IMG/VR virus record: IMGVR_UViG_3300023242_000004
Location: 1-64,000 of that record
Source of the DNA: a virus
Strand: one strand, 5' to 3'
Length of the DNA stretch: 64,000 nt
The notes under the pieces are model-generated. The model worked only from the letters and a program-made list of their open reading frames with translations. It had not been told where the DNA came from and did not search any database. This document shows positions 4,703 through 63,998 of the stretch, in pieces (position 1 is the stretch's first letter; each line of letters opens with the position of its first letter). The position numbers were made by a program, and so were the translations under genes.

Positions 4703-5055
4703 TAATCGCAACTACATTTACCATTTGGGTTATCACCACAATTACATGGGTTTACTTCTTCGTCTATTTCAATATCTTCATCTGCGACATCGATGTCTAA
4801 CCCCACAGCAAAACTTTCTTTGATTTCTTCAACCATCTTATTTATTTTTTTCATGTCTGCTTCTGCTACAACAAGTGGATTAATACACTCAATTTTTTCC
4901 TCACCTTTGGTTGGTAAGAAGAATGCTAAAGCGTTAGCGTTTTTATGCGCTAACAAGTTGTTTACCGATTCAGCGAATGGCTGAATAATTTCTGGCATTT
5001 TCATCATATCTGCATCCAAGTAGAATACTATGATTAGCGGATAACCTTCTTTCAT
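4702..5055 (-). CDS. hypothetical protein with Cys-rich tail
   Basis: Ends CNCGDNPNGKCSCD. Confidence 0.7.
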   Translation of the reverse strand: MKEGYPLIIVFYLDADMMKMPEIIQPFAESVNNLLAHKNANALAFFLPTKGEEKIECINPLVVAEADMKKINKMVEEIKESFAVGLDIDVADEDIEIDEEVNPCNCGDNPNGKCSCD

Positions 5056-5060
5056 TTGTT

Positions 5061-5300
5061 TTATTTATTATATGTTGTTATTTCTTCAATCATTTCTTTT
5101 AAGACTGATTTATTCAATGGTTCAGCCATCTCTAAAAGAAGCATGTTAACTCTTTCTTCTTTTGCAACATAACCAATTTCGTTAAAACATTGGGTATTAA
5201 CCCCATCAATAGTTACATATATTAAATACTCACTAATGTAATTTTTTACACTTTTTCGACTATAAAATCGGTCAATTTCTTTTATTATTATTTTTTTCAT
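5061..5300 (-). CDS. hypothetical protein (start reassigned to ATG 5300)
   Basis: TAnnTTTG box at 5315-5322 just upstream of this ATG. Confidence 0.6.
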   Translation of the reverse strand: MKKIIIKEIDRFYSRKSVKNYISEYLIYVTIDGVNTQCFNEIGYVAKEERVNMLLLEMAEPLNKSVLKEMIEEITTYNK

Positions 5301-5424
5301 TGTTTTAATTTTCACAAAAGTAACCAAAAAATTTAAACATGTAAAGTCTAAAATAAAAAAAACCAATAAAGAGTTTTTTTTATACTAATTCACAAGATGC
5401 GGGGGTGTTTACTTCAAACCCTTA

Positions 5425-6876
5425 TTAAACCGTTACTACCGAGTAACGTTCAGAGTCGATAACTGACATCATCATTGAGATTGGTGTCATGTCTTTACCA
5501 CCTAACAAGTTAGTAAGTAAAGATGGGCTAAAACCAGACACCAAAGCAGTGCCATTCGTATCGAACTGAACTGGTTTGTTGTTATCACCTCTAGATTGGA
5601 TATTCCAATATACAATACTAGGCATTTTGTACCCAGCATCTTCGTACATTGTATGAATCATCTCTTGAGCAGTTGGGTTCCATTTGTTAGTACTACGGTA
5701 ACTATTAACTGCCGAATTGAACTCCATATCTGACAAGATAAGAATCATAGTTGGCATCTCATCCCCAGAAACATTTAAAGCTTTTGCTTTTGACAACACA
5801 AGGTTAAATACAGCTTCTAAGTTTGTAGACATCGCCCAATCAGCTCTAGCTAATTGATTGTATCTGTCATTCAACGAACCCTTAAGGATTTGAAGAGTTG
5901 GATATTCGGAAAACGTTACGAAAGCGTCTTGGAATGGACCAACATTTCTTTCAGAGATATATAATCCCAAAGAGATTGCTACATCCATACAAGTTACATT
6001 AGCGTTTCCACCAACTGGACTTTCCATTGACCCCGAAACGTCAACAACTGGAAGTACTCTTTCCGCACTACCTTCCATAAAGTTAGGTAAAGCATCCCAT
6101 TGTACATTAGCACCTTTGGAGTTACCTTGCTTTAGGTTTTTAACTATGTCGTATGGGTACACAGCACCAGCGTTAATTTTTGCTTCACCTTTCTCAACCG
6201 AAGTTAAGTAAGTTTGAAAACGCTCCAAGTCATTTTTTGAGAACGCTTTCATCAAGTCACTCATCGCTTTTGAAGGCAATTTAGAATACTCAATTTTAGA
6301 CCACTCTTTAGCGCACATCAATTGCTCAACTGTGTTAGAGTTTTCTACCAACAATTTACGGTACTCTTTTGGAGTTAACCCTAAATGTTTTCTTAAAGCG
6401 TTTGCCCATCTTTTCTTTTCACGGTTATCTACATTTGGACGTGGCATCCATTTACCCACCAATTTATTATTATTCGCTAACCCATCAGCGATTAATGATA
6501 GAGCATCAGACTCCAAAGGTGTACCCACTAGTACTAATAAGTCATCCCAACGACCAAACTCACTAATCAAGTTCAAGTTTTTACGTAACGTTTCCGTTCT
6601 GTTTTCAGCTAAATATTCGATGATGTCTCTAAAAACTTTACGTTCTCCAGCACCACCTCTTATATCACGTGCCCAGAATAAAAGCCGCATTGCAGTCAAT
6701 GTATCTTCACTAAATGCTTTGGTGAACACGTTGATTAGACGTTGTTTATCTTGACCTCTCATAGCACCAATCTGGAAGAATAAATCAACACAGTGGTTCA
6801 ACGAAGAAGAATTAGTAGACATCCCGTTTTCAGTTAACGAATTTTTTGTTTGCATAGCATTTAATAATGTACTCAT
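5425..6876 (-). CDS. DUF2828 / TROVE-like protein with vWA domain
   Basis: TENG start, RDIRGGAGER, GRWDDL, KWMPR, MIDAS VVDVSGSM, LSDMEF, SGFS. Confidence 0.88.
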   Translation of the reverse strand: MSTLLNAMQTKNSLTENGMSTNSSSLNHCVDLFFQIGAMRGQDKQRLINVFTKAFSEDTLTAMRLLFWARDIRGGAGERKVFRDIIEYLAENRTETLRKNLNLISEFGRWDDLLVLVGTPLESDALSLIADGLANNNKLVGKWMPRPNVDNREKKRWANALRKHLGLTPKEYRKLLVENSNTVEQLMCAKEWSKIEYSKLPSKAMSDLMKAFSKNDLERFQTYLTSVEKGEAKINAGAVYPYDIVKNLKQGNSKGANVQWDALPNFMEGSAERVLPVVDVSGSMESPVGGNANVTCMDVAISLGLYISERNVGPFQDAFVTFSEYPTLQILKGSLNDRYNQLARADWAMSTNLEAVFNLVLSKAKALNVSGDEMPTMILILSDMEFNSAVNSYRSTNKWNPTAQEMIHTMYEDAGYKMPSIVYWNIQSRGDNNKPVQFDTNGTALVSGFSPSLLTNLLGGKDMTPISMMMSVIDSERYSVVTV

Positions 6877-22497: not shown

Positions 22498-25308
22498 CTA
22501 TTTTACGCTAATACTAGACAGATTATCTTTTTTAATAACTGTAATAATATTATTTGACCAATCCTTCACCAAATCATTGTGCGTAATAAAGAAAACAATT
22601 TCATACATATCTTTTATTTTATCAAAGAGATTTTTCAATTTTTCTAAATTTTCTGATGCCACTTTACCTAATACTTCATCAAAAGTAATAAAGTTAGGCA
22701 TAGGTAAAGTAGATAATTTACCTAACACTGCTCTAAGTGCTAAACTAGCCGCTGTTTTCTCTAACCCAGAACCAGATTTTAGTAATTTAGATATACCATC
22801 TTTAACCATTAAAAATTGGACATCGTTCTTATCATTCATAGATATCTCAATATCGAAATCTACAACATCTTCTAACAATCTTTGTGCTTCAGAATTAATA
22901 ATCGGTAAAACAGAACGCAAAACTAATTTACTAATACCTTTCTTACCAACCAACTCGATATAAATCTTGAAAATCTTATCAACTTCTTCTTCTTTTTTTA
23001 TCGTTTCTATTAATTTTGTTTTAGTGATAACACTAGTTTTATTGGTTTGTATATCTGCTTGAACCCTTTGTATGTTTATAATTGTTTGGTCTTTTGAATA
23101 TTCGCAAACCGCTAATTTTGTTTTAACGTCGATAACTTTAATCTCTATTTTTTTATTAAACTCAATAGCATGCAAATTAAGCTGATATTTTTTAAGGTCA
23201 TTTTTCTTTGCGATTACATCATTTCTCAACGAACCCATTTCAACTTCCATTCTATCAACATTTAACTCTAGTTTATTTTTGTTATCAATTAGCAATTTGT
23301 TTTCATTTAAAGTAGTTAATTTAGCAGATAACGAATTTAACGTTTCATCAACACCCAAAACTTCTTTTCTTAAATTTTCTATTTCCAATTCATGTTTAGT
23401 TATGTGTAGTGAGTTATCCACATCATCTAATTTTCTATTACACGATTGACAAACACCACCAGCAATCAAACCAGTCACAACTTTTTCAAGCCTTGTTATC
23501 TCAGCCTCTTTTAACGCTTTATTTGTAGTGTTTACATTAAAATCTTTAGAGAATTCTAAATGTTTATCTTCATCAAAATCAATTTCACCAATTGCGGTTA
23601 TCTTAACTTTTAACCCAGCAACCTTTTCTTTAAATTCAACACCTTTATCAATTAATTTATCAACTTCACTTTCTAATTTTTCTGGGTTAAGTTCTGAAAT
23701 GGTAACGTCGATTTTTTCTTTGCTATCGATTAAATCGTCTTTACTATCAGTAAGTGTTTGGATTTCAGATTTAGTGTTACCCAATTTTTGTTTTAACTCA
23801 ACATCTAATTCTTCACCCAAAATAATTTTATCATTATGGTCATCTATTTCTTCACCTAAAGTAATAACATCATATTCATTAGATTTTTTCTTCCTAGCAA
23901 ATTCATTATACATTTCTCTAGCCGCTTTTTCTTTAAGTTCTAGTATTTCTAAACCAATAAGCCTAGTTAAAATTTTTCCAGATTCAGTTGTAGTCAAACC
24001 AATAAGGTCGTCTAAGTTTTTTTCTGTTGCCAACACTAACATCTCAAAATCTTTTTCACTACCAATAGTTTCTTTAAGCCTTCTAGTTGTTTGAGTAGCG
24101 TCTTCTTCATTTAACGCTTCTTCTTCACCATCTGGAAGTATTCTGTAGTAGTTAACTCTATTTGTAACAGTCCAACCACCATCTTTTTTAGCCGTGCGTC
24201 TCATTTTACGCTCAATGATAGTCTCTTCACCCTCAATTTCAATCATACCTCTTACTACTAGTTCGTTCTTATTACTGTAGGTGTTGAAGATTTGTTCGTT
24301 TGTGTCTGTTTTTGTTGTGTTACCATGTAACAAAAATTTAATAGCGTCAATAGTTAAAGTTGTATTATGAGAAACTATACCATTGGAATAATATTGGTGG
24401 ACTTCATCTACTTGAATATCATATAGAGTATCTTTGAAATCCATCAACTTAATAGATTTAACATTAGATATTCCATTAACTGTTTGAATCCGCTCACCAA
24501 CTTCTACTTCTTTTAAAACGACAAATTCACCATCTTCTTTTTTAAGCCTGTGATAGTCAGCGCCCTCAACATATTTTCCATCTTCAAGCTCACAGCGATA
24601 TACATCCGCATTCTCTTCAGTGATACCACACCAAGTAATATCTTTATACCCGTAAGGTGTATTAACCTTAAAACCTAAATCACCATATTTTTCATATATC
24701 GAATTTAACTCACCGATTGTTATTTCGTCTGGTAAAACCCCTATTTTTTTACCTATTTCTTCCTTATCAAATTGTATATTTATCCGAGTGTCAGACCTAA
24801 CACATTTACCACCTTGATTAGCTGGAATTGAATTTACTATAGTTAAACCTTTTAATTTGCTAAAAGGAACGTAATTACTTTCACCAAAGGATAAGAAATT
24901 ATCTATCATAAGCCATTTAATTGACCAACTTCTATGTGTTGTTTGCGTTAAATCAACATTTAATTCACCGTTTACCTTGTCATCTAAAGCAACAATACGG
25001 TTGAAATCAACATTCTTACCATCTCTAGTAATTAACTCTTTCATAAGCGCTCTTTGATAGTTAACATCCATGATGTTCTCCATACCAGCACCAGTGATTT
25101 CAATGGCATCACCATCGGTATTGAACCTAACTGGTCTATAAACAACCGTTATATTATTTTTTTGAACACCGTACTTGTTAGCTATATAGTTTCTAATCTT
25201 ATTTTTGGCCTCTTTGCTGTAGTTGTGTGGTTGGTCATCCCAATATACTTTAATCTTGGAATACGGTGATATTAATGTGTTATCTAATGTATCTGTTTTA
25301 TTCGCCAT
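22498..25308 (-). CDS. sbcC: SbcC/Rad50 (gp46-like) ATPase with mini-intein
   Basis: IDNFLSFG, Walker A NQGGK|TT, coiled coil with CQSC Zn-hook, signature SGLEK, Walker B FITFDE, ITHN. Confidence 0.92.
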   Translation of the reverse strand: MANKTDTLDNTLISPYSKIKVYWDDQPHNYSKEAKNKIRNYIANKYGVQKNNITVVYRPVRFNTDGDAIEITGAGMENIMDVNYQRALMKELITRDGKNVDFNRIVALDDKVNGELNVDLTQTTHRSWSIKWLMIDNFLSFGESNYVPFSKLKGLTIVNSIPANQGGKCVRSDTRINIQFDKEEIGKKIGVLPDEITIGELNSIYEKYGDLGFKVNTPYGYKDITWCGITEENADVYRCELEDGKYVEGADYHRLKKEDGEFVVLKEVEVGERIQTVNGISNVKSIKLMDFKDTLYDIQVDEVHQYYSNGIVSHNTTLTIDAIKFLLHGNTTKTDTNEQIFNTYSNKNELVVRGMIEIEGEETIIERKMRRTAKKDGGWTVTNRVNYYRILPDGEEEALNEEDATQTTRRLKETIGSEKDFEMLVLATEKNLDDLIGLTTTESGKILTRLIGLEILELKEKAAREMYNEFARKKKSNEYDVITLGEEIDDHNDKIILGEELDVELKQKLGNTKSEIQTLTDSKDDLIDSKEKIDVTISELNPEKLESEVDKLIDKGVEFKEKVAGLKVKITAIGEIDFDEDKHLEFSKDFNVNTTNKALKEAEITRLEKVVTGLIAGGVCQSCNRKLDDVDNSLHITKHELEIENLRKEVLGVDETLNSLSAKLTTLNENKLLIDNKNKLELNVDRMEVEMGSLRNDVIAKKNDLKKYQLNLHAIEFNKKIEIKVIDVKTKLAVCEYSKDQTIINIQRVQADIQTNKTSVITKTKLIETIKKEEEVDKIFKIYIELVGKKGISKLVLRSVLPIINSEAQRLLEDVVDFDIEISMNDKNDVQFLMVKDGISKLLKSGSGLEKTAASLALRAVLGKLSTLPMPNFITFDEVLGKVASENLEKLKNLFDKIKDMYEIVFFITHNDLVKDWSNNIITVIKKDNLSSISVK
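24364..24804 (-). mobile_element. cis mini-intein (147 aa, no endonuclease) in the SbcC Walker A
   Basis: GGK|CVRSDT...GADYHRL...LYDIQVDEVHQYYSNGIVSHN|T. Confidence 0.92.
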
Positions 25309-25932: not shown

Positions 25933-26151
25933 TTATAAATTTGTTATTTTTTCTGTTCCGTTTTCAATATCCTCAATTGATTTAATTTTAAATTGATAAT
26001 AAGGGAACTTATTTTCAACATCGTGTTCAGTATATGTTTTAGTTGGGATGTCCCACAATAAAAACCCATGTTTTGTTAAGTTTTCACCAAAGTTTTGTTG
26101 TATCAATGATGAACTCATCATTATAGGAATCACTTTTTTCATTTTAATCAT
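25933..26151 (-). CDS. sbcD: SbcD/Mre11 nuclease, C-terminal fragment
   Basis: IPIMMSSSLIQQNFGE...HGFLLWD matches the YxGS...FGE...KG segment that follows motif V in SbcD. Confidence 0.8.
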   Translation of the reverse strand: MIKMKKVIPIMMSSSLIQQNFGENLTKHGFLLWDIPTKTYTEHDVENKFPYYQFKIKSIEDIENGTEKITNL

Positions 26152-27043
26152 ATTTTTTATATTTTTTTATCACATTAGCTAATAAGAATTTAAAATTTTT
26201 CTTTTTTATTTCCATTTCCCAAAATCTTTCTAAATTATAACCTTTTTCTAAGGCTAATTTATTCTTAAATTCATCATTTTCTTTATTTTTAATTTGAATT
26301 TCGGTTAAAATACTTAATTCATTATATTTAATAGGGTTTACATGCCAATAATCACCATCAGCTTCAATTAATAAATTTAACTCTATTAGGTAAAAATCAT
26401 AAGTTTTAAATTTATTACCATAATAAACATCATATTGGGTTTGAAACTTAATTTTATTTTCTATTAAAATATTACTAATTTTAATTTCAATATTTGTACC
26501 TTTAGTTTTCTTTAACCCTTCCCTCATTAACTGAAATGATGTTTTACCATATTTTAATAAACATGTATTATTAGCGATTTCTCTAAATTCTTTAACGCTT
26601 AATATACACTCAGCACCATATTTATCTAAATTAGTTTCATTTTTCTTTAAACAAGATTCCTCATCTGTACCCATCCAAAATCCATTATCATTAAAAAATT
26701 TTTCATGTCCAATTTTAACTTTTTCTTTATGTTCATCATTCCGCCATATTTTTTTCATTCTAATAGAATGATGTTCTTTCCATTCATCACTATGCTTAAT
26801 GTTAAATACTGGGTTACCCTCTTTTAAATAAAGTTCTTTTTGATGAGAATCTTTACATATCCTAGAACAATATTTTTTCCCGTTCTCAAGTTTATTAGGT
26901 AACGTTTCAAATTCATTTTTACAATATAAACAATTTTCTTTAACTCTATTAACTTTTATTTCTTTATAACCAATATGTTGACATTTAATTGAACAATATA
27001 CTTTATTTTTAGTTTCTTTTTGACAGATTTTACATTTATTCAT
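26144..27043 (-). CDS. free-standing putative homing endonuclease (Zn ribbons plus Vsr/DUF559-like domain)
   Basis: CxxC...YCSxxC x2; YDFYL...LLIEADGDYWH...GYNLERFWE. Confidence 0.85.
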   Translation of the reverse strand: MNKCKICQKETKNKVYCSIKCQHIGYKEIKVNRVKENCLYCKNEFETLPNKLENGKKYCSRICKDSHQKELYLKEGNPVFNIKHSDEWKEHHSIRMKKIWRNDEHKEKVKIGHEKFFNDNGFWMGTDEESCLKKNETNLDKYGAECILSVKEFREIANNTCLLKYGKTSFQLMREGLKKTKGTNIEIKISNILIENKIKFQTQYDVYYGNKFKTYDFYLIELNLLIEADGDYWHVNPIKYNELSILTEIQIKNKENDEFKNKLALEKGYNLERFWEMEIKKKNFKFLLANVIKKYKKYD

Positions 27044-27107: not shown

Positions 27108-27797
27108 TCAATTATCAATCTCCCAACCCATTTTTATATAAGTTTCTAAATCTTCTTCATTAATTTCTATATTTTGGATGTGATTAAACCCACTTCTAAT
27201 ATGGATATCACCACACATAACTATATCACACCCATCAAATATATTTATATTATAACCATGGTCAATCTCGTAACCAATATCTGTTTTTAAACCTATTAAT
27301 GGACCATGAAATAAACCAATATATGTTTTATCATCACCAAACTGTAATCTGGCCGATTCAATATCTGGTCTTTTATTTTCTTCAAAAATTGAATACACAC
27401 ACCAAACAACGTCACCATCTAAATAACATTTAGATTCTTTAAAATAGTTTATATCTTGGTCTGGTAAAAATTGAACCATCGGGCTAATACTATCCATTCG
27501 GTCTTTATTGTTCTCCAATAAATCGTGGTTACCAGCAATAATAACAACTGGACCTATTTTTTCTAATTCTCTCAAAAACCAAGTACCTAGCATCAATTGT
27601 TCGTTAGAAATAATAATTTTTTGGTGAACAAGGTCACCAGCGATTACTATTCTAATTTCTTCTTTTTTATACCCTTCTAATAATTCACCTAACTGATTTA
27701 AAAGAGTGTCAAAAGAATCTTTATATTCATCATGTAACCTAAAAGTCCTAATGTGAATATCCGCAAGATGAACACATTTTTTTATTTTATTACCCAT
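27108..27797 (-). CDS. sbcD: SbcD/Mre11 (gp47-like) nuclease, N-terminal fragment
   Basis: HLADIH, AGDL, GNHD, FHG, GDIH motifs I-V; ends soon after motif V. Confidence 0.9.
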   Translation of the reverse strand: MGNKIKKCVHLADIHIRTFRLHDEYKDSFDTLLNQLGELLEGYKKEEIRIVIAGDLVHQKIIISNEQLMLGTWFLRELEKIGPVVIIAGNHDLLENNKDRMDSISPMVQFLPDQDINYFKESKCYLDGDVVWCVYSIFEENKRPDIESARLQFGDDKTYIGLFHGPLIGLKTDIGYEIDHGYNINIFDGCDIVMCGDIHIRSGFNHIQNIEINEEDLETYIKMGWEIDN

Positions 27798-56606: not shown

Positions 56607-56993
56607 TTATAGTTTTACTACTACTATGTCTGATGTTGTAAAAACAGCATCTGTTATTGTATATTTTAAAGTGAACACAGCAGCGTATTCGCTTTCAGTT
56701 GATTCTTCAACCAAAATTTCATCCAATTGTAATTTTGGTAAATAAAGTTTTACTACTGATTTAATTTCTTCTTTAACACCATTTAATGTCATCCCATCTT
56801 GTGGTTCAAAGATAAATTTTAATAAATCAGTACCAAAGTTTGGTTTATAAAGTCTTTGACCTTTTCTAGTCAATATTATATGTAGAAGGTCGGCTTTTAT
56901 CGCTTGACTATCTTCATCATTTAAATCTAAGAAAAAACCTTTGTTACTATTCTTAAAAGGATAATTTATATTTATGTATTTACCGTTTGCCAT
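56607..56993 (-). CDS. baseplate protein, gp25-like
   Basis: IKADLLHIILTRKGQRLYKPNFGTDL..FIFEP. Confidence 0.9.
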   Translation of the reverse strand: MANGKYININYPFKNSNKGFFLDLNDEDSQAIKADLLHIILTRKGQRLYKPNFGTDLLKFIFEPQDGMTLNGVKEEIKSVVKLYLPKLQLDEILVEESTESEYAAVFTLKYTITDAVFTTSDIVVVKL

Positions 56994-57096: not shown

Positions 57097-57714
57097 TTAA
57101 CTTGAACAACCCACGCACTCAAATTGACTCTCGGTAGGTTTTTCTACTTGTTTTTGTTTTGTCATATCAATAGCTAAATGTTTAGCTTTCATATCAACGG
57201 ACTCACTCCTTAAATAATACTGACCAGTTTTAAGTCCTAATTTCCAAGACAAATTATGTGATGTAGTTAATTTACCAACAGTAGGTGTACTAAAGAAAAT
57301 ATTAAGACTTTGCGATTGGTCAATGAATGGTGCTCTATCAGCAGACATTTCGATTAACGCTTTTTGGGAAATTTCCCAAACTGTTTTATACCTTTCTTTC
57401 ATCTCTGAACTAATAACTGGTATGTTTTGAACACTACCATTATTTTTTATCAATTCACTAAGAATTTCTCTATTCCATAAACCTTCTGATTCTAAATCTC
57501 TAACTAGGTGTTTGTTTACCATAGCGAATTCACCACCAGTCACTCTTCGAACATAAAGATTTGAAGTGAACGGTTCGAAAGCTTCGTTTGAACCAATTAC
57601 ACGAGCAGAATTATGACTAACACAACCATTTTCCATTATATAATGATTCACGTTTGGTACTTCAATATCCCACGTAGGTTTTATATCACCCTTAGTTATT
57701 TTTTTTATTTTCAT
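57097..57714 (-). CDS. nrdA: NrdA part 3: split-intein IntC2 (35 aa) plus C-terminal extein (170 aa)
   Basis: TWDIEV...NGCVSHN|SARVIG.NEAFEP, FIDQSQSLN, GLKTGQYYLR, terminal CVGCSS. Confidence 0.93.
   Translation of the reverse strand: MKIKKITKGDIKPTWDIEVPNVNHYIMENGCVSHNSARVIGSNEAFEPFTSNLYVRRVTGGEFAMVNKHLVRDLESEGLWNREILSELIKNNGSVQNIPVISSEMKERYKTVWEISQKALIEMSADRAPFIDQSQSLNIFFSTPTVGKLTTSHNLSWKLGLKTGQYYLRSESVDMKAKHLAIDMTKQKQVEKPTESQFECVGCSS
57610..57714 (-). mobile_element. split intein 2, C-fragment
   Basis: Blocks F and G, HN|S. Confidence 0.9.
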
Positions 57715-57983
57715 AATTTATTCTTTAAAATTTTATTTATTTTTTCTTTATTTATTTTTTCAGAATCCGAAGACCATAATTCTATATAGTTACCCCATTT
57801 TAAATTACCATCGTGTTCACCCCATTTAATTATAAACATTTCTAAGGTGTGTTTACTTTTATCACAAAATTCTTGGTATTTTAATGGACCATAAATTTCG
57901 CCATGATTAAAAATAAAACTCTCTAAAGTCCTACCACACTTTAATTTATGTAACCTTACTTTTTCAATAGATTCATTATTCAT
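57711..57983 (-). pseudogene. degenerate homing endonuclease remnant
   Basis: TLE.FI..(H/W)GE..G..K(Y/W) repeats and INKEK end like ORF 62943, but no nuclease domain. Confidence 0.7.
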
Positions 57984-58082
57984 TAAACCTTTTTTTAACC
58001 AATACTCAATTTTGAATGGTGATGGTTTGTTAGATATTTTTATATGTTTTATTAACTACGTACACAACACTTAAACGACCTA

Positions 58083-59069
58083 CTACTTTTCAAATATATT
58101 TAATATATCGTCCGTGGCTACCAAATCAATTACTTCAACCCATATTCCATCATTACCTCTTTTTACTTTGAATTTATGATTTTCAGTTGCTTCAAAAATT
58201 GACCCATCTTCCATTTCTATTTTATAGACAACAGAATGTGCGTTATACTTTATTTTATTAACTTCTTCATACCCATTAATTGTTTTAACATTAAAAGCTT
58301 TTAAATCTAACCATTGTTGTAGATTCATACTTTCTAATTGTTCCCAATCAATATTGTTTTCTTCTAATATATCTTTAAATGATTTAACACCACTTTCAGT
58401 ATGAATCCTAGTATCAATAACTTGACAACTAGCTGTTGGTGGGCATGTTGTAACTAAAGAGTTTCTAACACCATATTTTTTAATGTCTTTTCTTAACCCT
58501 TTCCAATCATGCATACCAGATAAATTATCTTCAGTCAACCCCCACATTTGCCATTGGAAAATACCTTCAGAAATTGGTGAACCCTCGTAACCATCATACG
58601 TTAACCCAGTTTTTTTAGCTAAAGCACAAGATTCACTTAAAGCATTAAAATAAATCGTTTCAAATATGTCTTTATTTAATTGTCTAGCTATTTCACCAGT
58701 GAACGGTAATTTTAATATAGCAAACACATCTGCTAAACCTTGTATACCAATACCTAATGCTCTTTGTTCTAAACCACCTTTTCTACCTTCTGGTGTTGAA
58801 TATTCGTTAACCTCTAAAGCTATGTTTAATGATTTTGTTATTGAACGTGCTACTTTACCCAATCCTATGAAGTCGTAAACTCCATCTATAATATATTTTT
58901 GAACTGGGATGCTAGTAAGCGTACAAATAGCTGTTGTTTCAGCGTTGGTCGTCTCCATAATTTCCGAACAATTATGTACTAATATATCATTACCAAAAAA
59001 ATTATGGTTATCCTCAACAGTAATATCGTATACTGGTATTTTTTCGTTTAATTTTTCTATTTTTATCAT
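58083..59069 (-). CDS. nrdA: NrdA part 2: IntC1 (33 aa) plus middle extein (181 aa) plus IntN2 (114 aa)
   Basis: VYDITV...ILVHN|CSEI...AICTLTS...RALGIGIQGLAD...GVRNS...PPTAS|CQVIDT...ATENHKF. Confidence 0.93.
   Translation of the reverse strand: MIKIEKLNEKIPVYDITVEDNHNFFGNDILVHNCSEIMETTNAETTAICTLTSIPVQKYIIDGVYDFIGLGKVARSITKSLNIALEVNEYSTPEGRKGGLEQRALGIGIQGLADVFAILKLPFTGEIARQLNKDIFETIYFNALSESCALAKKTGLTYDGYEGSPISEGIFQWQMWGLTEDNLSGMHDWKGLRKDIKKYGVRNSLVTTCPPTASCQVIDTRIHTESGVKSFKDILEENNIDWEQLESMNLQQWLDLKAFNVKTINGYEEVNKIKYNAHSVVYKIEMEDGSIFEATENHKFKVKRGNDGIWVEVIDLVATDDILNIFEK
58086..58427 (-). mobile_element. split intein 2, N-fragment
   Basis: Block A CQVIDTRI, block B ATENHKF, ends DLVATDDIL. Confidence 0.9.
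58971..59069 (-). mobile_element. split intein 1, C-fragment
   Basis: Blocks F and G, HN|C. Confidence 0.9.
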
Positions 59070-59074
59070 TTATT

Positions 59075-59821
59075 TTAATTTTTAAATTTCCATTTAAAAC
59101 CACCAGCAGTGGTTCCTTGTTTACAAGCTCTACTAATTCCAGACTTATGTTTAATATTATTCTTTTCAGCTGCTTCAACAGTAGTTAAGTAAGTGTCAAT
59201 TTCTTCACCATTTACACTCATTTTAACAACAGTTTTAGCGTTTGGGTTATTTTCTCTAGTATTATTAATAGACATCTTTTTTAAAGTTTCATCATTAGCT
59301 TTTCTACCTAAGTTCCAATGATTACCATTTATTTTAGCTTTATGTGATGGTCGTTCTTTTAAAGATAACCCATACATATTGTTATTAACACCAGTAGCGT
59401 TTAACCTATGTTTTTCACGTATTTCTTCTTTATTTGGGTTATTAGTAAACGTATCACCACCTAACCCACCTTTAGTTAAATTGGTTAGAATACCACTTTT
59501 ATTATGTCTAAAACCCATTATATCTATTAATAAACTTTCAATATCATAAGCGGTTTGTTCTTCTAACCCTTCAACTATTTTTATTATTATGGGTTCTAAC
59601 CCATTTTTTAATATTTGATTAATAACATTTAACTTATAAATATTATTTGTTAAATCTTTATTTTGTTCTTTTATTAACTTTAAATGTTTTTCTAACCTAT
59701 TAGAACTATCTTTACCCTTTCCAATATAAAAAGGTTTATTTTTAAAAATATAATTTCCAAAATTATACTCACCAATTTCTCTAGGGTCCAAGTAAGCGTA
59801 CACATAATATTTTTTTTCCAT
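59075..59821 (-). CDS. GIY-YIG-type homing endonuclease with C-terminal NUMOD1-like domain
   Basis: YYVYAYLDPR...PFYIGKG...R..H...E..LI...G.LTN...GG; C-terminal TAGGFKW. Confidence 0.85.
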   Translation of the reverse strand: MEKKYYVYAYLDPREIGEYNFGNYIFKNKPFYIGKGKDSSNRLEKHLKLIKEQNKDLTNNIYKLNVINQILKNGLEPIIIKIVEGLEEQTAYDIESLLIDIMGFRHNKSGILTNLTKGGLGGDTFTNNPNKEEIREKHRLNATGVNNNMYGLSLKERPSHKAKINGNHWNLGRKANDETLKKMSINNTRENNPNAKTVVKMSVNGEEIDTYLTTVEAAEKNNIKHKSGISRACKQGTTAGGFKWKFKN

Positions 59822-59862
59822 TGTGATTTCCATTATGTATATATACATAATGGAAATCACAA
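59821..59862. promoter_or_regulatory. perfect 42-bp palindrome over the endonuclease translation start region
   Basis: TTGTGATTTCCATTATGTATA|TATACATAATGGAAATCACAA. Confidence 0.75.
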
Positions 59863-59867
59863 AAAGA

Positions 59868-61442
59868 TTAAAATATTTCTAATACATCAGTCTCAACTAA
59901 ATCTTTAGCTAACACATATCCTCTATTTTTTGTGAATATTTGGTGTTCTGGTGTGCAAATAATATGTTTACCAGTTTCCTCATCAGTTATCTTTAAAACA
60001 TCAGCTGACTCATTCATTAAGGCAGCATTTGTTATCTTTTTATATTCTGGTTTATTTGTTTCAATATTATAACTTAATACTTCTATACCGTGTTCTACAT
60101 TAAAATCGTTAACAACATCGGAAATATTAAAATCAACTTCCTTACCATGATATTTTGTTTTAATAATTGTTTTACCATCAACACACAAATTACTAGAGTG
60201 AATCATACCAATATTTTTTTGGTTGGATTTCTCATTAACGTGGTCTTTAAAGCACATATATGGCATACCAGTTTCAATTTGTGATTCCAAAATTTTAAGC
60301 CATAAATCATGTGCTTTAATTTTAGTACCAATACCCATCTCTACGGCCTTATTATATTCTTCCTCATACTCTTTACCATAAATCTCATAAAATGGCTTTA
60401 AACCAGCTTCTTTTATGTCGTTTGGGCAGAATAAATACCAAGCATCATTTGTTTCAACAGCTCTCATAAAATTATTTGGAATCCATAGTGCTGAAAATAA
60501 GTCACGAGCCCTTAAAGTATCATCACCTGTCTTTTTTCTTATATCTAAAACGTCGAAAACATCTTTATGCCATGGTTCAATATAAACAGCACAAGAGCCA
60601 GGTCTTTTACCTCTTTGGTTCCAGAATCTAAGTGTTTCATTAACAACTTTAAGGTATTTTAAAATACCACCAGCTTTTCCGTTTGAATTACCCACATTAC
60701 TTTCTTTTGAACGAATATTTGAAATAGCTAAACCTATACCTTCTGCTTTTGATGATGATATAGCAATTCTACCTAGGATATCTAATAACCCTTCTGTTGA
60801 ATCATCTGGAACAATCGATAAATTACATGAGGCAATTTGACCAATTGTTGTTCCTATGTTCATTTTTATAGGCGTTGCTGGGCTTTCTTTTTGATTACTT
60901 ATGTAATTGTATTTTTCAATAAAATCTTCAGCGTTTTCTGTCACCATAAGAGCGACCCTAACATACATTTGTTGTGGTCTTTCTACTATCACGCCATCTT
61001 TTGTTTTTAAAAGATATATGTCTTTAAGAGAACACCAACCAAAATAATCAAAATTAAAATCTCTAGAATAATCGATTGTTGATTCGATTAACTCTATATT
61101 TTCTTTAACTTTATTAAAATACACATCATTCAATAAACCTAAATTATACATTTTTTTTATTGCCTTCATGAACGAGTCATCGGTTTCTTTATGTAATTTA
61201 GTTATGGATATATTTGCAGCCAATTTTGAATAGTCTGGATGATTCATAGCTAATGATTCAGATACGACTGAAATCAAATCATCTAACTCATTTGTTGTCA
61301 TATCATCAGCAATACCTTGCGTAACCTTTATAAACACCTCGTCAGCGTTAACTTTTAACCCTTCGGATTGTTTTTTTATTCTGGTAAGAATTTTATTTGG
61401 GTTAAAATCTATTTTATTACCGTTTCTTTTTATTACTTGCAT
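59868..61442 (-). CDS. nrdA: NrdA part 1: ATP-cone plus N-terminal extein (419 aa) plus IntN1 (105 aa)
   Basis: VIKRNG ATP-cone, ERPQ, SPATP, ASC, QRGKRPG, ETGMPY, SSNL|CVDGKT...CTPEHQIFT. Confidence 0.95.
   Translation of the reverse strand: MQVIKRNGNKIDFNPNKILTRIKKQSEGLKVNADEVFIKVTQGIADDMTTNELDDLISVVSESLAMNHPDYSKLAANISITKLHKETDDSFMKAIKKMYNLGLLNDVYFNKVKENIELIESTIDYSRDFNFDYFGWCSLKDIYLLKTKDGVIVERPQQMYVRVALMVTENAEDFIEKYNYISNQKESPATPIKMNIGTTIGQIASCNLSIVPDDSTEGLLDILGRIAISSSKAEGIGLAISNIRSKESNVGNSNGKAGGILKYLKVVNETLRFWNQRGKRPGSCAVYIEPWHKDVFDVLDIRKKTGDDTLRARDLFSALWIPNNFMRAVETNDAWYLFCPNDIKEAGLKPFYEIYGKEYEEEYNKAVEMGIGTKIKAHDLWLKILESQIETGMPYMCFKDHVNEKSNQKNIGMIHSSNLCVDGKTIIKTKYHGKEVDFNISDVVNDFNVEHGIEVLSYNIETNKPEYKKITNAALMNESADVLKITDEETGKHIICTPEHQIFTKNRGYVLAKDLVETDVLEIF
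59871..60185 (-). mobile_element. split intein 1, N-fragment
   Basis: Block A CVDGKT, block B CTPEH, ends RGYVLAKDLVETDVL. Confidence 0.9.
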
Positions 61443-61459
61443 ACTTTTATTTATTAATG

Positions 61460-62413
61460 TTAAATTTCTTCATCAAATGAGATTGGCCCACTTAAATCAG
61501 CTGATTTATATTCCGTTGAACGACCCTCGAAAAAATTTGCCTTTGTTTTTAAAGCAATTTGATTCATAAACTCAAAAGGGTTTTTACTATTAAATTCTTT
61601 ATCGCACTCTAATTGTTGTAATAAACCATCAACAACAAACTCTAAATATTGTTTCATAACATTAGAGTTCATACCAATAAGCGAAACTGGTAATGATTCA
61701 GTAATAAATTCTTTCTCAATCTCTAAAGCAGATAAGAAAATTTCTTTGATTCTTTCTTTAGATGGTTTATCAACTATATGATTATTTAATAAATGAATAG
61801 CAAAATCAGCATGCATAGCTTCATCTCTAGAAATGAACGTATTTGAATCACATAAACCTGGCATTAAACCTCTAGATTTTAAATAAAAAATACTACAGAA
61901 AGAACCAGAAAAGAAAATACCCTCCACAGCAACAAACGCTATTAATCTCTCAACAAAAGATTCAGATTCAATCCATTTTAACGCCCATTCAGCTTTTTTC
62001 TTAACTGGTGGCATGTATTCAATAGCGTTAAAACATTCTTGTCTTTCTTTAGTATCTTTAATGTATGTATCGATAAGTAAAGAATACATTTGACTATGGA
62101 TATTTTCCATCATAATTTGAAAACCGTAAAAAAACTTTGCTTCGGTGTATTGAACCTCATTTAAGAAATTTATAGCTAGATTTTCGTTCACTATACCGTC
62201 ACTGGCAGCAAAGAAGGCTAACACGTTTTTAACGAAAAATCTTTCTTTTTCAGTTAGTTTATTGTTCCAGTGGTCAATGTCTTTAGATAAATCAACTTCT
62301 TGAGTTGTCCACATAGCACTTAATTGTGTTTCATACAAATCCCAAATATCTTGGTGTTCAATAGGAAAAAGCACAAATCTGTTTGGGTTGTTAATTAATA
62401 TTGGTTCGTTCAT
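61460..62413 (-). CDS. nrdB: ribonucleotide reductase class Ia beta subunit
   Basis: [42 protein letters not shown]. Confidence 0.96.
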
Positions 62414-62448: not shown

Positions 62449-62937
62449 TTATTGTTGAGTTGGGCTATTTAATATAGTGTTTCTGTTTTGAGCGGCCGCT
62501 AATACTGTATTAACTCTGTTTTGGTTTACTTCGTCTTTATCCATCTTATGTTCCGTTTGACTTCTAGCGCCTTTACTTTTACCCATATCTATTTGAATTT
62601 TTGCGTTATCAAATCTTATATCTTGAAAGATAATACCATCTTTACCAAATCTAGATTTAAGTATCGCCATTGTCGCAGTACCAGCTTCTTTTTGGTCTAA
62701 GTTTTTCGCTATAGACACAATAAAGTGACCAATTTGACCTTTTTTAATTGAACCACCTATTTGGTTAGCTTCAACCACATCAGCCGAAATAGAGCTGTTG
62801 TGTGTGTAAATATCGTTACCATAAAACATATGTGTGTCTTCTACGGTGATATCAATAGTGTCTTCCTCACCAATTAACTCAATTGATTCGATTTCATCCA
62901 AATCAAAATTACTTAAATCTAAATTGTGTTTTACCAT
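62449..62937 (-). CDS. replicative helicase (gp41/DnaB-like) C-terminal part with split-intein C-fragment
   Basis: TIDITVEDTHMFYGNDIYTHN|SS...GSIKK.QI..F.VSI...ILKSRFG. Confidence 0.85.
   Translation of the reverse strand: MVKHNLDLSNFDLDEIESIELIGEEDTIDITVEDTHMFYGNDIYTHNSSISADVVEANQIGGSIKKGQIGHFIVSIAKNLDQKEAGTATMAILKSRFGKDGIIFQDIRFDNAKIQIDMGKSKGARSQTEHKMDKDEVNQNRVNTVLAAAQNRNTILNSPTQQ
62797..62937 (-). mobile_element. split intein 3, C-fragment (47 aa)
   Basis: Blocks F and G resembling gp41-1 IntC; HN|S. Confidence 0.85.
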
Positions 62938-62942
62938 TTTTT

Positions 62943-63998
62943 TTATTTTAAAAAGTTTAAACATTTCTCTAATGTTTTTTCTTTATTTATTTTGTATTCA
63001 CTTTCTTTAATCCTTAATATTTTATAACCCTTACCAATTAAAAACTCATCTCTTACCATATCTTTAGATTTTTGTTCTGGTTTAGAATGCCAATAATCAC
63101 CATCAAACTCAATTATTTTATCACCACATTTGAAATCGACAAGTATAGTAAAAATATTTTTTATGTTAACGTAGAAATACTCTTCACCATTTAATTCCGC
63201 AAATTTAACATTAATTTTATCAATATCTGTTAATTTATTAAATAATAACCAAAATAATTCCTGTGATATCTTACTATAATAGACACCACTTCTAAATTGT
63301 TTATCTAAAAACTCAATAAATTTTATTTTACCAACTTTACAACCATATCTATCGATAAATGATTGTAATGACGTTTTTGACATAGTGGTACAATATTCTA
63401 ACCATTTAACTTTACCATGTTTATCACCATATAAATCAATAAAATATTTTTCACTAAATCGATATTTTTGTTGGTTGTTACGTTTTATCCATTTTTGATA
63501 ACCAACTTTAACCCCATCTCTATCTTGATATTCAACTAAAGTTCTACCATTTCTATATGGTTTAATTTTCCTACGTTCTTTTTGGGTCTCAATTTTCTTA
63601 GTTAAACGTTCTTGCCATTTTTTAGTACCTTCAGTCTCACCATATCTTTCAATGCAAGCTTCAAATCCCCAAGGTGTTTTTGAATTAACTAAATATTCAG
63701 TATATTTATTAACCCCATCTTCTTTACCATATTTTTTAATATAACCATCTAACGTATGTGCAAATTTAACATATAATTCTGATTTAACCAATTCAACATT
63801 TTCTTTACCATACCTAATTTCTAAAGCATATTCAGAAGCGATATCATTTTTTAAAACGTTGATGATGATATTAAGTCTTTCTAACCAATCACCATCAACA
63901 TTAAATTTAATAAAATCATGTATATTTTTCATTCTATTCTTAATTCTTACATTATCGTAAACTTCTAATATTTTACTTATTTCAGTCTTTTGACATTC
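62943..63998 (-). CDS. putative homing endonuclease, Vsr/DUF559-like with KYG repeats (frame open to window edge)
   Basis: YSKISQELF, VDF...KIIEFDGDYWH, RDEFL..KGYKILRIKE; no stop upstream of 63932 within the window. Confidence 0.82.
   Translation of the reverse strand, partial: ECQKTEISKILEVYDNVRIKNRMKNIHDFIKFNVDGDWLERLNIIINVLKNDIASEYALEIRYGKENVELVKSELYVKFAHTLDGYIKKYGKEDGVNKYTEYLVNSKTPWGFEACIERYGETEGTKKWQERLTKKIETQKERRKIKPYRNGRTLVEYQDRDGVKVGYQKWIKRNNQQKYRFSEKYFIDLYGDKHGKVKWLEYCTTMSKTSLQSFIDRYGCKVGKIKFIEFLDKQFRSGVYYSKISQELFWLLFNKLTDIDKINVKFAELNGEEYFYVNIKNIFTILVDFKCGDKIIEFDGDYWHSKPEQKSKDMVRDEFLIGKGYKILRIKESEYKINKEKTLEKCLNFLK

Follow-up and report, generated by a model that had tools for sequence, protein, structure and literature searches.

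Doubly fractured nrdA in a phage genome and its relatives: a stand-alone middle chain flanked by halves of two different split inteins

Organization of the nrdA locus

The stretch of DNA analysed here (hereafter the window) comprises 64,000 nucleotides, positions 1 to 64,000 of the IMG/VR virus record IMGVR_UViG_3300023242_000004. The source record is 94,787 bases long and its completeness was estimated by CheckV at 27%, which suggests a large phage. At approximately 57-64 kb of the window every gene lies on the minus strand, and nrdA, coding for the large subunit of ribonucleotide reductase (RNR), is represented by three separate co-oriented ORFs, with an ORF of 261 aa between parts 1 and 2 and an ORF of 90 aa between parts 2 and 3. 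The features of the locus are listed below in gene order; a slash in a motif marks a junction between extein and intein.

61460..62413, minus strand: nrdB (RNR small subunit), directly upstream of nrdA; Pfam Ribonuc_red_sm, E 4.8e-104
59868-61442, minus strand: nrdA part 1, 524 aa, N-extein and IntN1
60186..61442, minus strand: N-extein, aa 1-419, with ATP-cone, all-alpha domain and first barrel half; Pfam ATP-cone, Ribonuc_red_lgN and Ribonuc_red_lgC
59868..60185, minus strand: IntN1, 105 aa and stop, with Cys1 and block B TPEH; Pfam Intein_splicing; NrdJ-1-like
59822..59861, minus strand: perfect palindrome (hairpin) ending at the endonuclease ATG; RNA fold -26.7 kcal/mol, z -8.5
59075..59821, minus strand: free-standing GIY-YIG homing endonuclease gene in the intein 1 break; Pfam LEM-3_GIY-YIG, E 3.5e-12, and NUMOD3
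58083-59069, minus strand: middle chain of nrdA, 328 aa, IntC1, extein and IntN2
58971..59069, minus strand: IntC1, aa 1-33 of the middle chain, with block F Asp and terminal HN (...VYDITVE...VHN/C)
58428..58970, minus strand: middle extein, 181 aa, aligned with RRM1; contiguous with both flanking exteins in loci L015-L023
57610..58427, minus strand: whole site-2 cassette (IntN2, spacer, endonuclease remnant and IntC2); absent in locus L013
58083..58427, minus strand: IntN2, 114 aa and stop, with Cys1 and block B TENH
57711..57983, minus strand: 90-aa ORF, remnant of a site-2 homing-endonuclease-like gene after an in-frame internal deletion
57097-57714, minus strand: nrdA part 3, 205 aa, IntC2 and C-extein
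57610..57714, minus strand: IntC2, aa 1-35 of part 3, ending in VSHN; 69-91% identical in phage KP13-7 and metagenome loci
57097..57609, minus strand: C-extein, 170 aa and stop, with +1 Ser, YY pair and C-terminal CxxC; Pfam Ribonuc_red_lgC 393-523

Part 1 consists of the N-extein (residues 1-419, ...HSSNL) followed by IntN1 (residues 420-524). The middle chain, which starts with an ATG immediately 3' of an in-frame TAA, is composed of IntC1 (residues 1-33, ...VHN), an extein of 181 aa (residues 34-214, CSEI...PPTAS) and IntN2 (residues 215-328, starting with Cys), and part 3 of IntC2 (residues 1-35, ...VSHN) and the C-extein (residues 36-205, SARVIG...). Pfam analysis of the middle chain revealed Ribonuc_red_lgC (E 7.7e-52) and, in two stretches, Intein_splicing (E 9.1e-11), which was thereby found at the end of part 1 and at both ends of the middle chain. 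The boundaries, the Pfam matches and the conserved residues confirm the original prediction that the 328-aa chain begins with a C-intein and ends with an N-intein. Joined together, the exteins (419 + 181 + 170 residues) would make up a class Ia NrdA of 770 aa, colinear with intein-free homologues, and the lengths predicted for the middle segment (181 aa), for a product that skips it (419+170 = 589 aa) and for the full product (770 aa) were likewise right.

All hallmarks of class Ia NrdA are present according to the Pfam matches and translations, namely the ATP-cone, all-alpha and ten-stranded barrel domains, N-L-C-x-E, the YY pair, the C-terminal Cys pair and an NrdB partner, and these motifs are distributed across all three chains. 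The Pfam barrel positions run from 1-213 in part 1 through 197-459 in the middle chain to 393-523 in part 3. Alignment of the middle extein with human RRM1 extends from the NLC-x-E thiyl motif to the PTAS/T loop. Accordingly placed within the enzyme, break 1 falls just before the thiyl-radical Cys of C-x-E, directly after the ...HSSNL end of the N-extein, and this catalytic Cys doubles as the +1 nucleophile; break 2 lies in a conserved loop (PTAS followed by S or T), the extein ending in PPTAS. In the intein-free homologues L015-L023 (78-97% identity) the exteins abut in frame, and the same is true at site 2 in L013.

Several other inteins and related features were observed in this genome. A third split intein breaks a gp41/DnaB-type helicase gene (...GNR/C... 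and ...THN/S; window 62449-62964, minus strand, and 62943-63932, minus strand; L084 124-1452, minus strand), the break being occupied by a Vsr/DUF559-type endonuclease gene; the gp41 IntC is 53% identical to IntC1 of NrdA, and no two C-halves of this genome are closer. A 936-aa ORF (22498-25308, minus strand) with a P-loop-like GK motif contains a contiguous mini-intein of 147 aa (GK/C...VSHN/T) and, judged by eye, is possibly Rad50/SbcC (gp46)-like. A 299-aa ORF with a DGDYWH motif of the Vsr-like endonuclease type (26144-27043, minus strand) lies directly downstream of a 229-aa ORF (27108-27797, minus strand) which resembles, by eye only, the N-terminal part of an SbcD/gp47-type nuclease; the two may represent an intein-less fractured sbcD as mentioned in PMC2677866.

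The two intein cassettes and predicted trans-splicing

Both inteins have the arrangement and the residues of class 1 HINT split inteins, with the N-half ending the upstream ORF and the C-half opening the downstream ORF. For intein 1 the complete motif set was found (Cys1, TPEH, block F Asp, terminal HN and +1 Cys). The best match of IntN1 among solved structures is NrdJ-1 (PDB 8UBS, E 1.7e-12), and IntC1 matches the C-terminus of the gp41-1 intein (E 3.4e-5). The GIY-YIG gene between these halves is intact, its likely start being the ATG at 59821.

IntN1 together with the hairpin leader (window 59821-60185) forms an island of approximately 365 nt that is 99-100% identical to L004 3487-3851, with flanks of ~75-83% identity. 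The upstream edge of this island coincides with the exact extein/intein junction and the downstream edge with the endonuclease ATG. IntC1 is excluded from it, with 79% aa identity (pS 0.64), and the halves of intein 1 therefore differ in their recent history. Site-1 inteins of this family occupy two neighbouring insertion points, before the catalytic Cys (HN/C-x-E-I, as in the window) or after it, the latter in the forms SNLC/...HN/SEI or HN/CEI (47-chain alignment; L010 3434-5987; L003 2553-5017), and both variants were found with the same site-2 split intein.

The motif set of intein 2 is complete as well (Cys1, TENH, block F Asp, terminal HN in VSHN/S, and +1 Ser). IntN2 is without a close solved relative, its best match being Npu DnaE (E 0.08). 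Contiguous mini-inteins resembling IntN2 and IntC2, with few residues between the two parts, occur in P0052, in P0044 and at site 2 of Campylobacter phages, and the existence of these homologues indicates that IntN2 and IntC2 are two halves of one mini-intein family. At site 2 only a decayed remnant of an endonuclease-like gene, the 90-aa ORF, lies between the halves; its TGA stop overlaps the ATG of part 3 (ATGA). This ORF aligns in two segments with a 359-aa ORF located at the corresponding position of L012, to residues 24-96 (E 1e-33) and to residues 327-352 (E 1e-10), and this pattern points to an in-frame internal deletion by which ~230-240 residues were lost. The 359-aa ORF shares only an N-terminal repeat module with the Vsr/DUF559-type endonuclease of the window (62943-63932). 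No Pfam family was matched by the 90-aa ORF or by the site-2 endonuclease-like ORFs (L012 5933-7012; KP13-7 4998-5969).

Conservation of the splicing residues suggests that both inteins are active. In 47 homologous middle chains with 44-79% identity to that of the window, Asp15, His32 and Asn33 of IntC1 and Cys215 and His298 of IntN2 are invariant. Pairwise comparison with three diverged relatives yielded rough dN/dS values, with synonymous sites near saturation, of 0.05-0.35 for the intein halves (0.09-0.35 for IntN2, with the same restriction) and 0.05-0.18 for the exteins, which indicates purifying selection on the intein halves close to that on the exteins. A pseudogene was rejected as an explanation of the locus on the grounds of purifying selection and of recurrence in independent assemblies.

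Taken together, nrdA of this phage has very probably been fractured twice, by two unrelated and independently mobile split-intein cassettes, and its chains would be trans-spliced to an ordinary NrdA. Cassette 1, just before the thiyl-radical Cys, would have brought an NrdJ-1-like intein with a live GIY-YIG homing endonuclease gene, and cassette 2, in the PTAS/S loop, an intein of another mini-intein family with a now decayed endonuclease-like gene. Three polypeptides would be produced from one co-oriented gene run, IntN1 would pair with IntC1 and IntN2 with IntC2, and two separate class-1 reactions (Cys1 to +1 Cys, and Cys1 to +1 Ser) would ligate 419 + 181 + 170 residues to the 770-aa enzyme. 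The IntC-extein-IntN middle chain would then be a by-product of the double invasion, and it would work since the two inteins are too divergent to pair with each other.

The same three chains might instead associate non-covalently through their intein halves and never be spliced, in the manner of the tails of the fragmented Aeh1 NrdA. There is a precedent for functional fragmented NrdA without splicing (PMC3045599), and nrdA of phage KP13-7 has one intein-less break containing an HNH gene. However, all splicing residues are intact and invariant in the 47 homologues, the intein halves are under purifying selection, and an unspliced HINT domain at intein 1, within N-L-C-x-E, would fill the finger loop of the active site, as suggested by the RRM1 alignment. 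Non-covalent assembly is thus considered very unlikely.

Recurrence, mobility and orthogonality of the two inteins

The doubly fractured nrdA is real and recurs in many phages. Stand-alone middle chains make up approximately 60 of the 120 best clusters at 90% identity (95-100% query cover, 313-375 aa), including contigs of up to 566 kb, and at 50% clustering at least 7 representatives are stand-alone middle chains. The names given to them at source do not go beyond 'ribonucleotide reductase alpha subunit' or 'hypothetical protein'. The same kind of chain is present in the cultured Klebsiella phage KP13-7 (Alcyoneusvirus, OP617745), in which nrdA is found in four pieces: an intein-less break occupied by an HNH gene is followed by IntN, a GIY-YIG gene, IntC-extein-IntN, a 323-aa ORF, and IntC with the C-extein. 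An assembly artefact was rejected, as independently assembled metagenomes and a cultured phage show the three-ORF layout again. The nearest cultured relatives of the NrdA extein are in Tenacibaculum (40-44% identity) and Cellulophaga (36%) phages.

The state of both sites was read for each of 83 loci searched by tblastn with nine sub-domains. Among relatives with NrdA exteins ~80-100% identical, all four states were seen:

Both sites split: L004-L010, L014
Only site 2 split: L011, L012
Only site 1 split: L013
Neither site split: L015-L023

The more distant loci L025-L028 and L046-L048 are split at site 1 only. Across the relatives, site 2 is represented at every stage of the homing cycle: it may be vacant, hold a contiguous intein, or hold a split intein whose endonuclease-like gene is present, decayed or missing.

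For cassette 2, the window was compared with L013. Identity is 99-100% throughout the N-extein, IntN1, the GIY-YIG gene, IntC1 and the other two exteins, and the L013 middle extein continues directly into the C-extein. In blastn and global alignment, the extra segment of the window is exactly 57610-58427, with an ambiguity of a few bases at the junctions. Divergence between the two is ~1% upstream of site 2 and 4.3% downstream, where mismatches per successive 150 nt number 9, 6, 5 and 2, and the next 3.6 kb downstream are ~95% identical. This step in divergence suggests that cassette 2 marks a recombination boundary, which is consistent with co-conversion upon gain or loss of the cassette. As judged by the near identity of L013, cassette 2 was gained or lost recently and the co-residence of the two inteins is young in this lineage. 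Two further differences were observed between these sequences: ~730 bases directly downstream of nrdA in L013 (6289-7018) are missing from the window (56962-56975), and similarity also stops at window position 62796, the boundary of the gp41 IntC.

The distribution of site states indicates that the two cassettes are independent mobile elements, which come and go separately. Three contigs from three datasets (L005-L007) carry a three-piece nrdA with an endonuclease gene at neither site, from which it appears that the fractured state persists on its own. In L009, L010 and L014 the same intein at site 2 is accompanied by a different one at site 1, which is inserted one residue later (SSNLC/C...HN/SEI), at the NrdJ-1-type point, and has an IntN1 38% identical to that of the window. 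The site-2 intein is therefore found with at least two different site-1 inteins, or with none. Independent gain and loss together with varied site-1 partners suggest that co-residence is modular and recent rather than co-adapted.

The middle chain carries halves of both inteins, and the original prediction had pointed to two conceivable products of mis-splicing, a cyclic 181-aa segment and a 589-aa product of skipping. The logic of this argument is sound, and both products lack essential parts of the enzyme, so in practice the inteins must not cross-react. IntN1 and IntN2 are 34% identical over 90 aligned positions, IntC1 and IntC2 38%, and IntN2 has an insertion of ~25 residues relative to IntN1; by these measures the two inteins belong to different families. 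Charge complementarity was rejected as a discriminator of the two NrdA pairs, since both IntN are acidic (-7 for IntN1 and -9 for IntN2) and both IntC near neutral (-3 for IntC1 and +1 for IntC2); charge does set the gp41 pair (IntN +5, IntC -12) apart from both. An AF2 model of the middle chain, run as a single chain without a cognate control (47-sequence alignment), gave pLDDT values of 85-98 for the extein, ~63-89 for IntN2 and ~33 for IntC1, a faint indication that IntC1 and IntN2 do not form a confident chimeric HINT domain.

In a 24 x 24 matrix, phylogenetically distant split inteins were mostly mutually orthogonal, and an inverse correlation between homology and orthogonality was assumed by its authors (PMC7090010). 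Two unrelated split inteins were strictly orthogonal in three-segment ligation (PMC12707363). Given the divergence of the families, this published default and the young, modular co-residence, the simplest reading is that orthogonality probably pre-existed, as divergent inteins would have it by default. Invasions by incompatible inteins would be eliminated, without any need for co-adaptation.

The strong selection for orthogonality claimed in the original prediction is not supported by these observations, the inteins being of different families and brought together recently and modularly, and distant split inteins being mostly orthogonal by default (PMC7090010). In its full form, this claim holds that selection actively shaped strict mutual orthogonality as the halves are tethered on one chain, so that the pairs would be unusually well insulated. 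The tethering argument itself is sound, with a high local concentration of the halves and both mis-products lacking essential residues, and the architecture persists in many lineages. Nevertheless, the inteins are already as divergent as 34-38% identity, L013 shows how young the co-residence is in this lineage, the site-2 intein occurs beside two or more different site-1 inteins as well as alone, and orthogonality is the usual state of distant split inteins in any case (PMC7090010), which makes such selection unlikely beside pre-existing orthogonality.

The topology alone might also suggest that leaky cross-reaction is functional, the cyclic 181-aa or 589-aa product constituting alternative protein splicing. 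Both products are without residues for catalysis or radical transfer, close relatives with one cassette or none show that the cassettes are dispensable, and AF2 leaves IntC1 undocked on IntN2; a function of this kind is unsupported and very unlikely. It is also extremely unlikely that, with non-cognate halves tethered on one chain, cyclisation of a minor share of the middle chain, or skip-splicing of parts 1 and 3, yields species that act on RNR, for instance as a dominant-negative or regulatory subunit. Should such species exist, they would represent alternative protein splicing in nature.

Comparison with known systems

Fractured genes containing split inteins have so far been described with one break per gene. 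Dassa et al. (2009) reported 26 loci with fractured genes plus a gp41 locus lacking an endonuclease gene, and NrdA-1 to NrdA-7 among them have a single break each, all at the thiyl-Cys point (PMC2677866). Site 1 of the window corresponds to the NrdA integration point of these loci, directly N-terminal to the thiyl Cys, and shares with them the GIY-YIG gene between the halves and a hairpin leader before the endonuclease start, the window's hairpin resembling the HEG-leader hairpins of PMC2677866. Its IntN1 is similar to NrdJ-1, which is among those loci together with gp41-1, and this phage, too, has a split intein of the gp41 type, accompanied by a Vsr-like endonuclease. Unlike the published loci, with one break per gene and one NrdA point, the window has a second, unrelated split intein in the same gene. 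The endonuclease-free relatives of its nrdA fit the later stages of the fractured-gene scheme (PMC2677866). Our literature search, covering open-access papers and preprints, found no report of a natural host protein with two split inteins, and for Alcyoneusvirus it found only an unrelated PolB split intein.

Among cultured phages, KP13-7 likewise encodes a separate IntC-extein-IntN chain, with its breaks in the same two NrdA regions. Break 1 houses a GIY-YIG gene and break 2 a further ORF, and the IntC2 of this phage is 69% identical to that of the window. It differs in having four pieces, with the extra intein-less break containing an HNH gene, in a site-1 intein inserted one residue later (SNLC/...HN/CEI), and in exteins only ~23-24% identical to those of the window; its chains are annotated as hypothetical proteins. 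The nrdA genes of Campylobacter phages CPt10, IBB_35 and CP20 also have inteins at both sites, with the site-1 intein interrupted by inserted ORFs, whereas their site-2 mini-intein is contiguous, so that the chain is IntC1-extein-[cis intein]-extein and the gene is not in three pieces.

SICLOPPS is an IntC-target-IntN arrangement for peptide cyclisation, which requires the cognate halves of one intein. The middle chain had originally been likened to it, and the order of parts on one polypeptide, IntC-extein-IntN, does agree. The likeness is topological only: the halves in the window come from different, non-cognate inteins, as reflected in their identities of 34% and 38%, different nearest relatives and the pLDDT of ~33 for IntC1, and the expected outcome is linear ligation.

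The closest engineered analogue of the middle chain is, instead of SICLOPPS, the middle fragment of tandem trans-splicing. In the engineered three-segment designs (PMC12707363, PMC7090010) an IntC(A)-segment-IntN(B) fragment likewise stands between IntN(A) and IntC(B) fragments, and both arrangements depend on orthogonality. The arrangement in the window differs in being natural and genome-encoded, in its probable origin from two mobile-element invasions, and in an orthogonality that is deduced from divergence and from the persistence of such gene layouts. A host protein predicted to need two simultaneous trans-splicing reactions would thus be a natural version of engineered three-segment ligation. 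Dozens of clusters with several intein combinations offer candidate co-resident pairs, presumably orthogonal, for use as tools, among them the uncharacterised site-2 family (Cys1, +1 Ser, 114+35 aa) beside its NrdJ-1-like partner.
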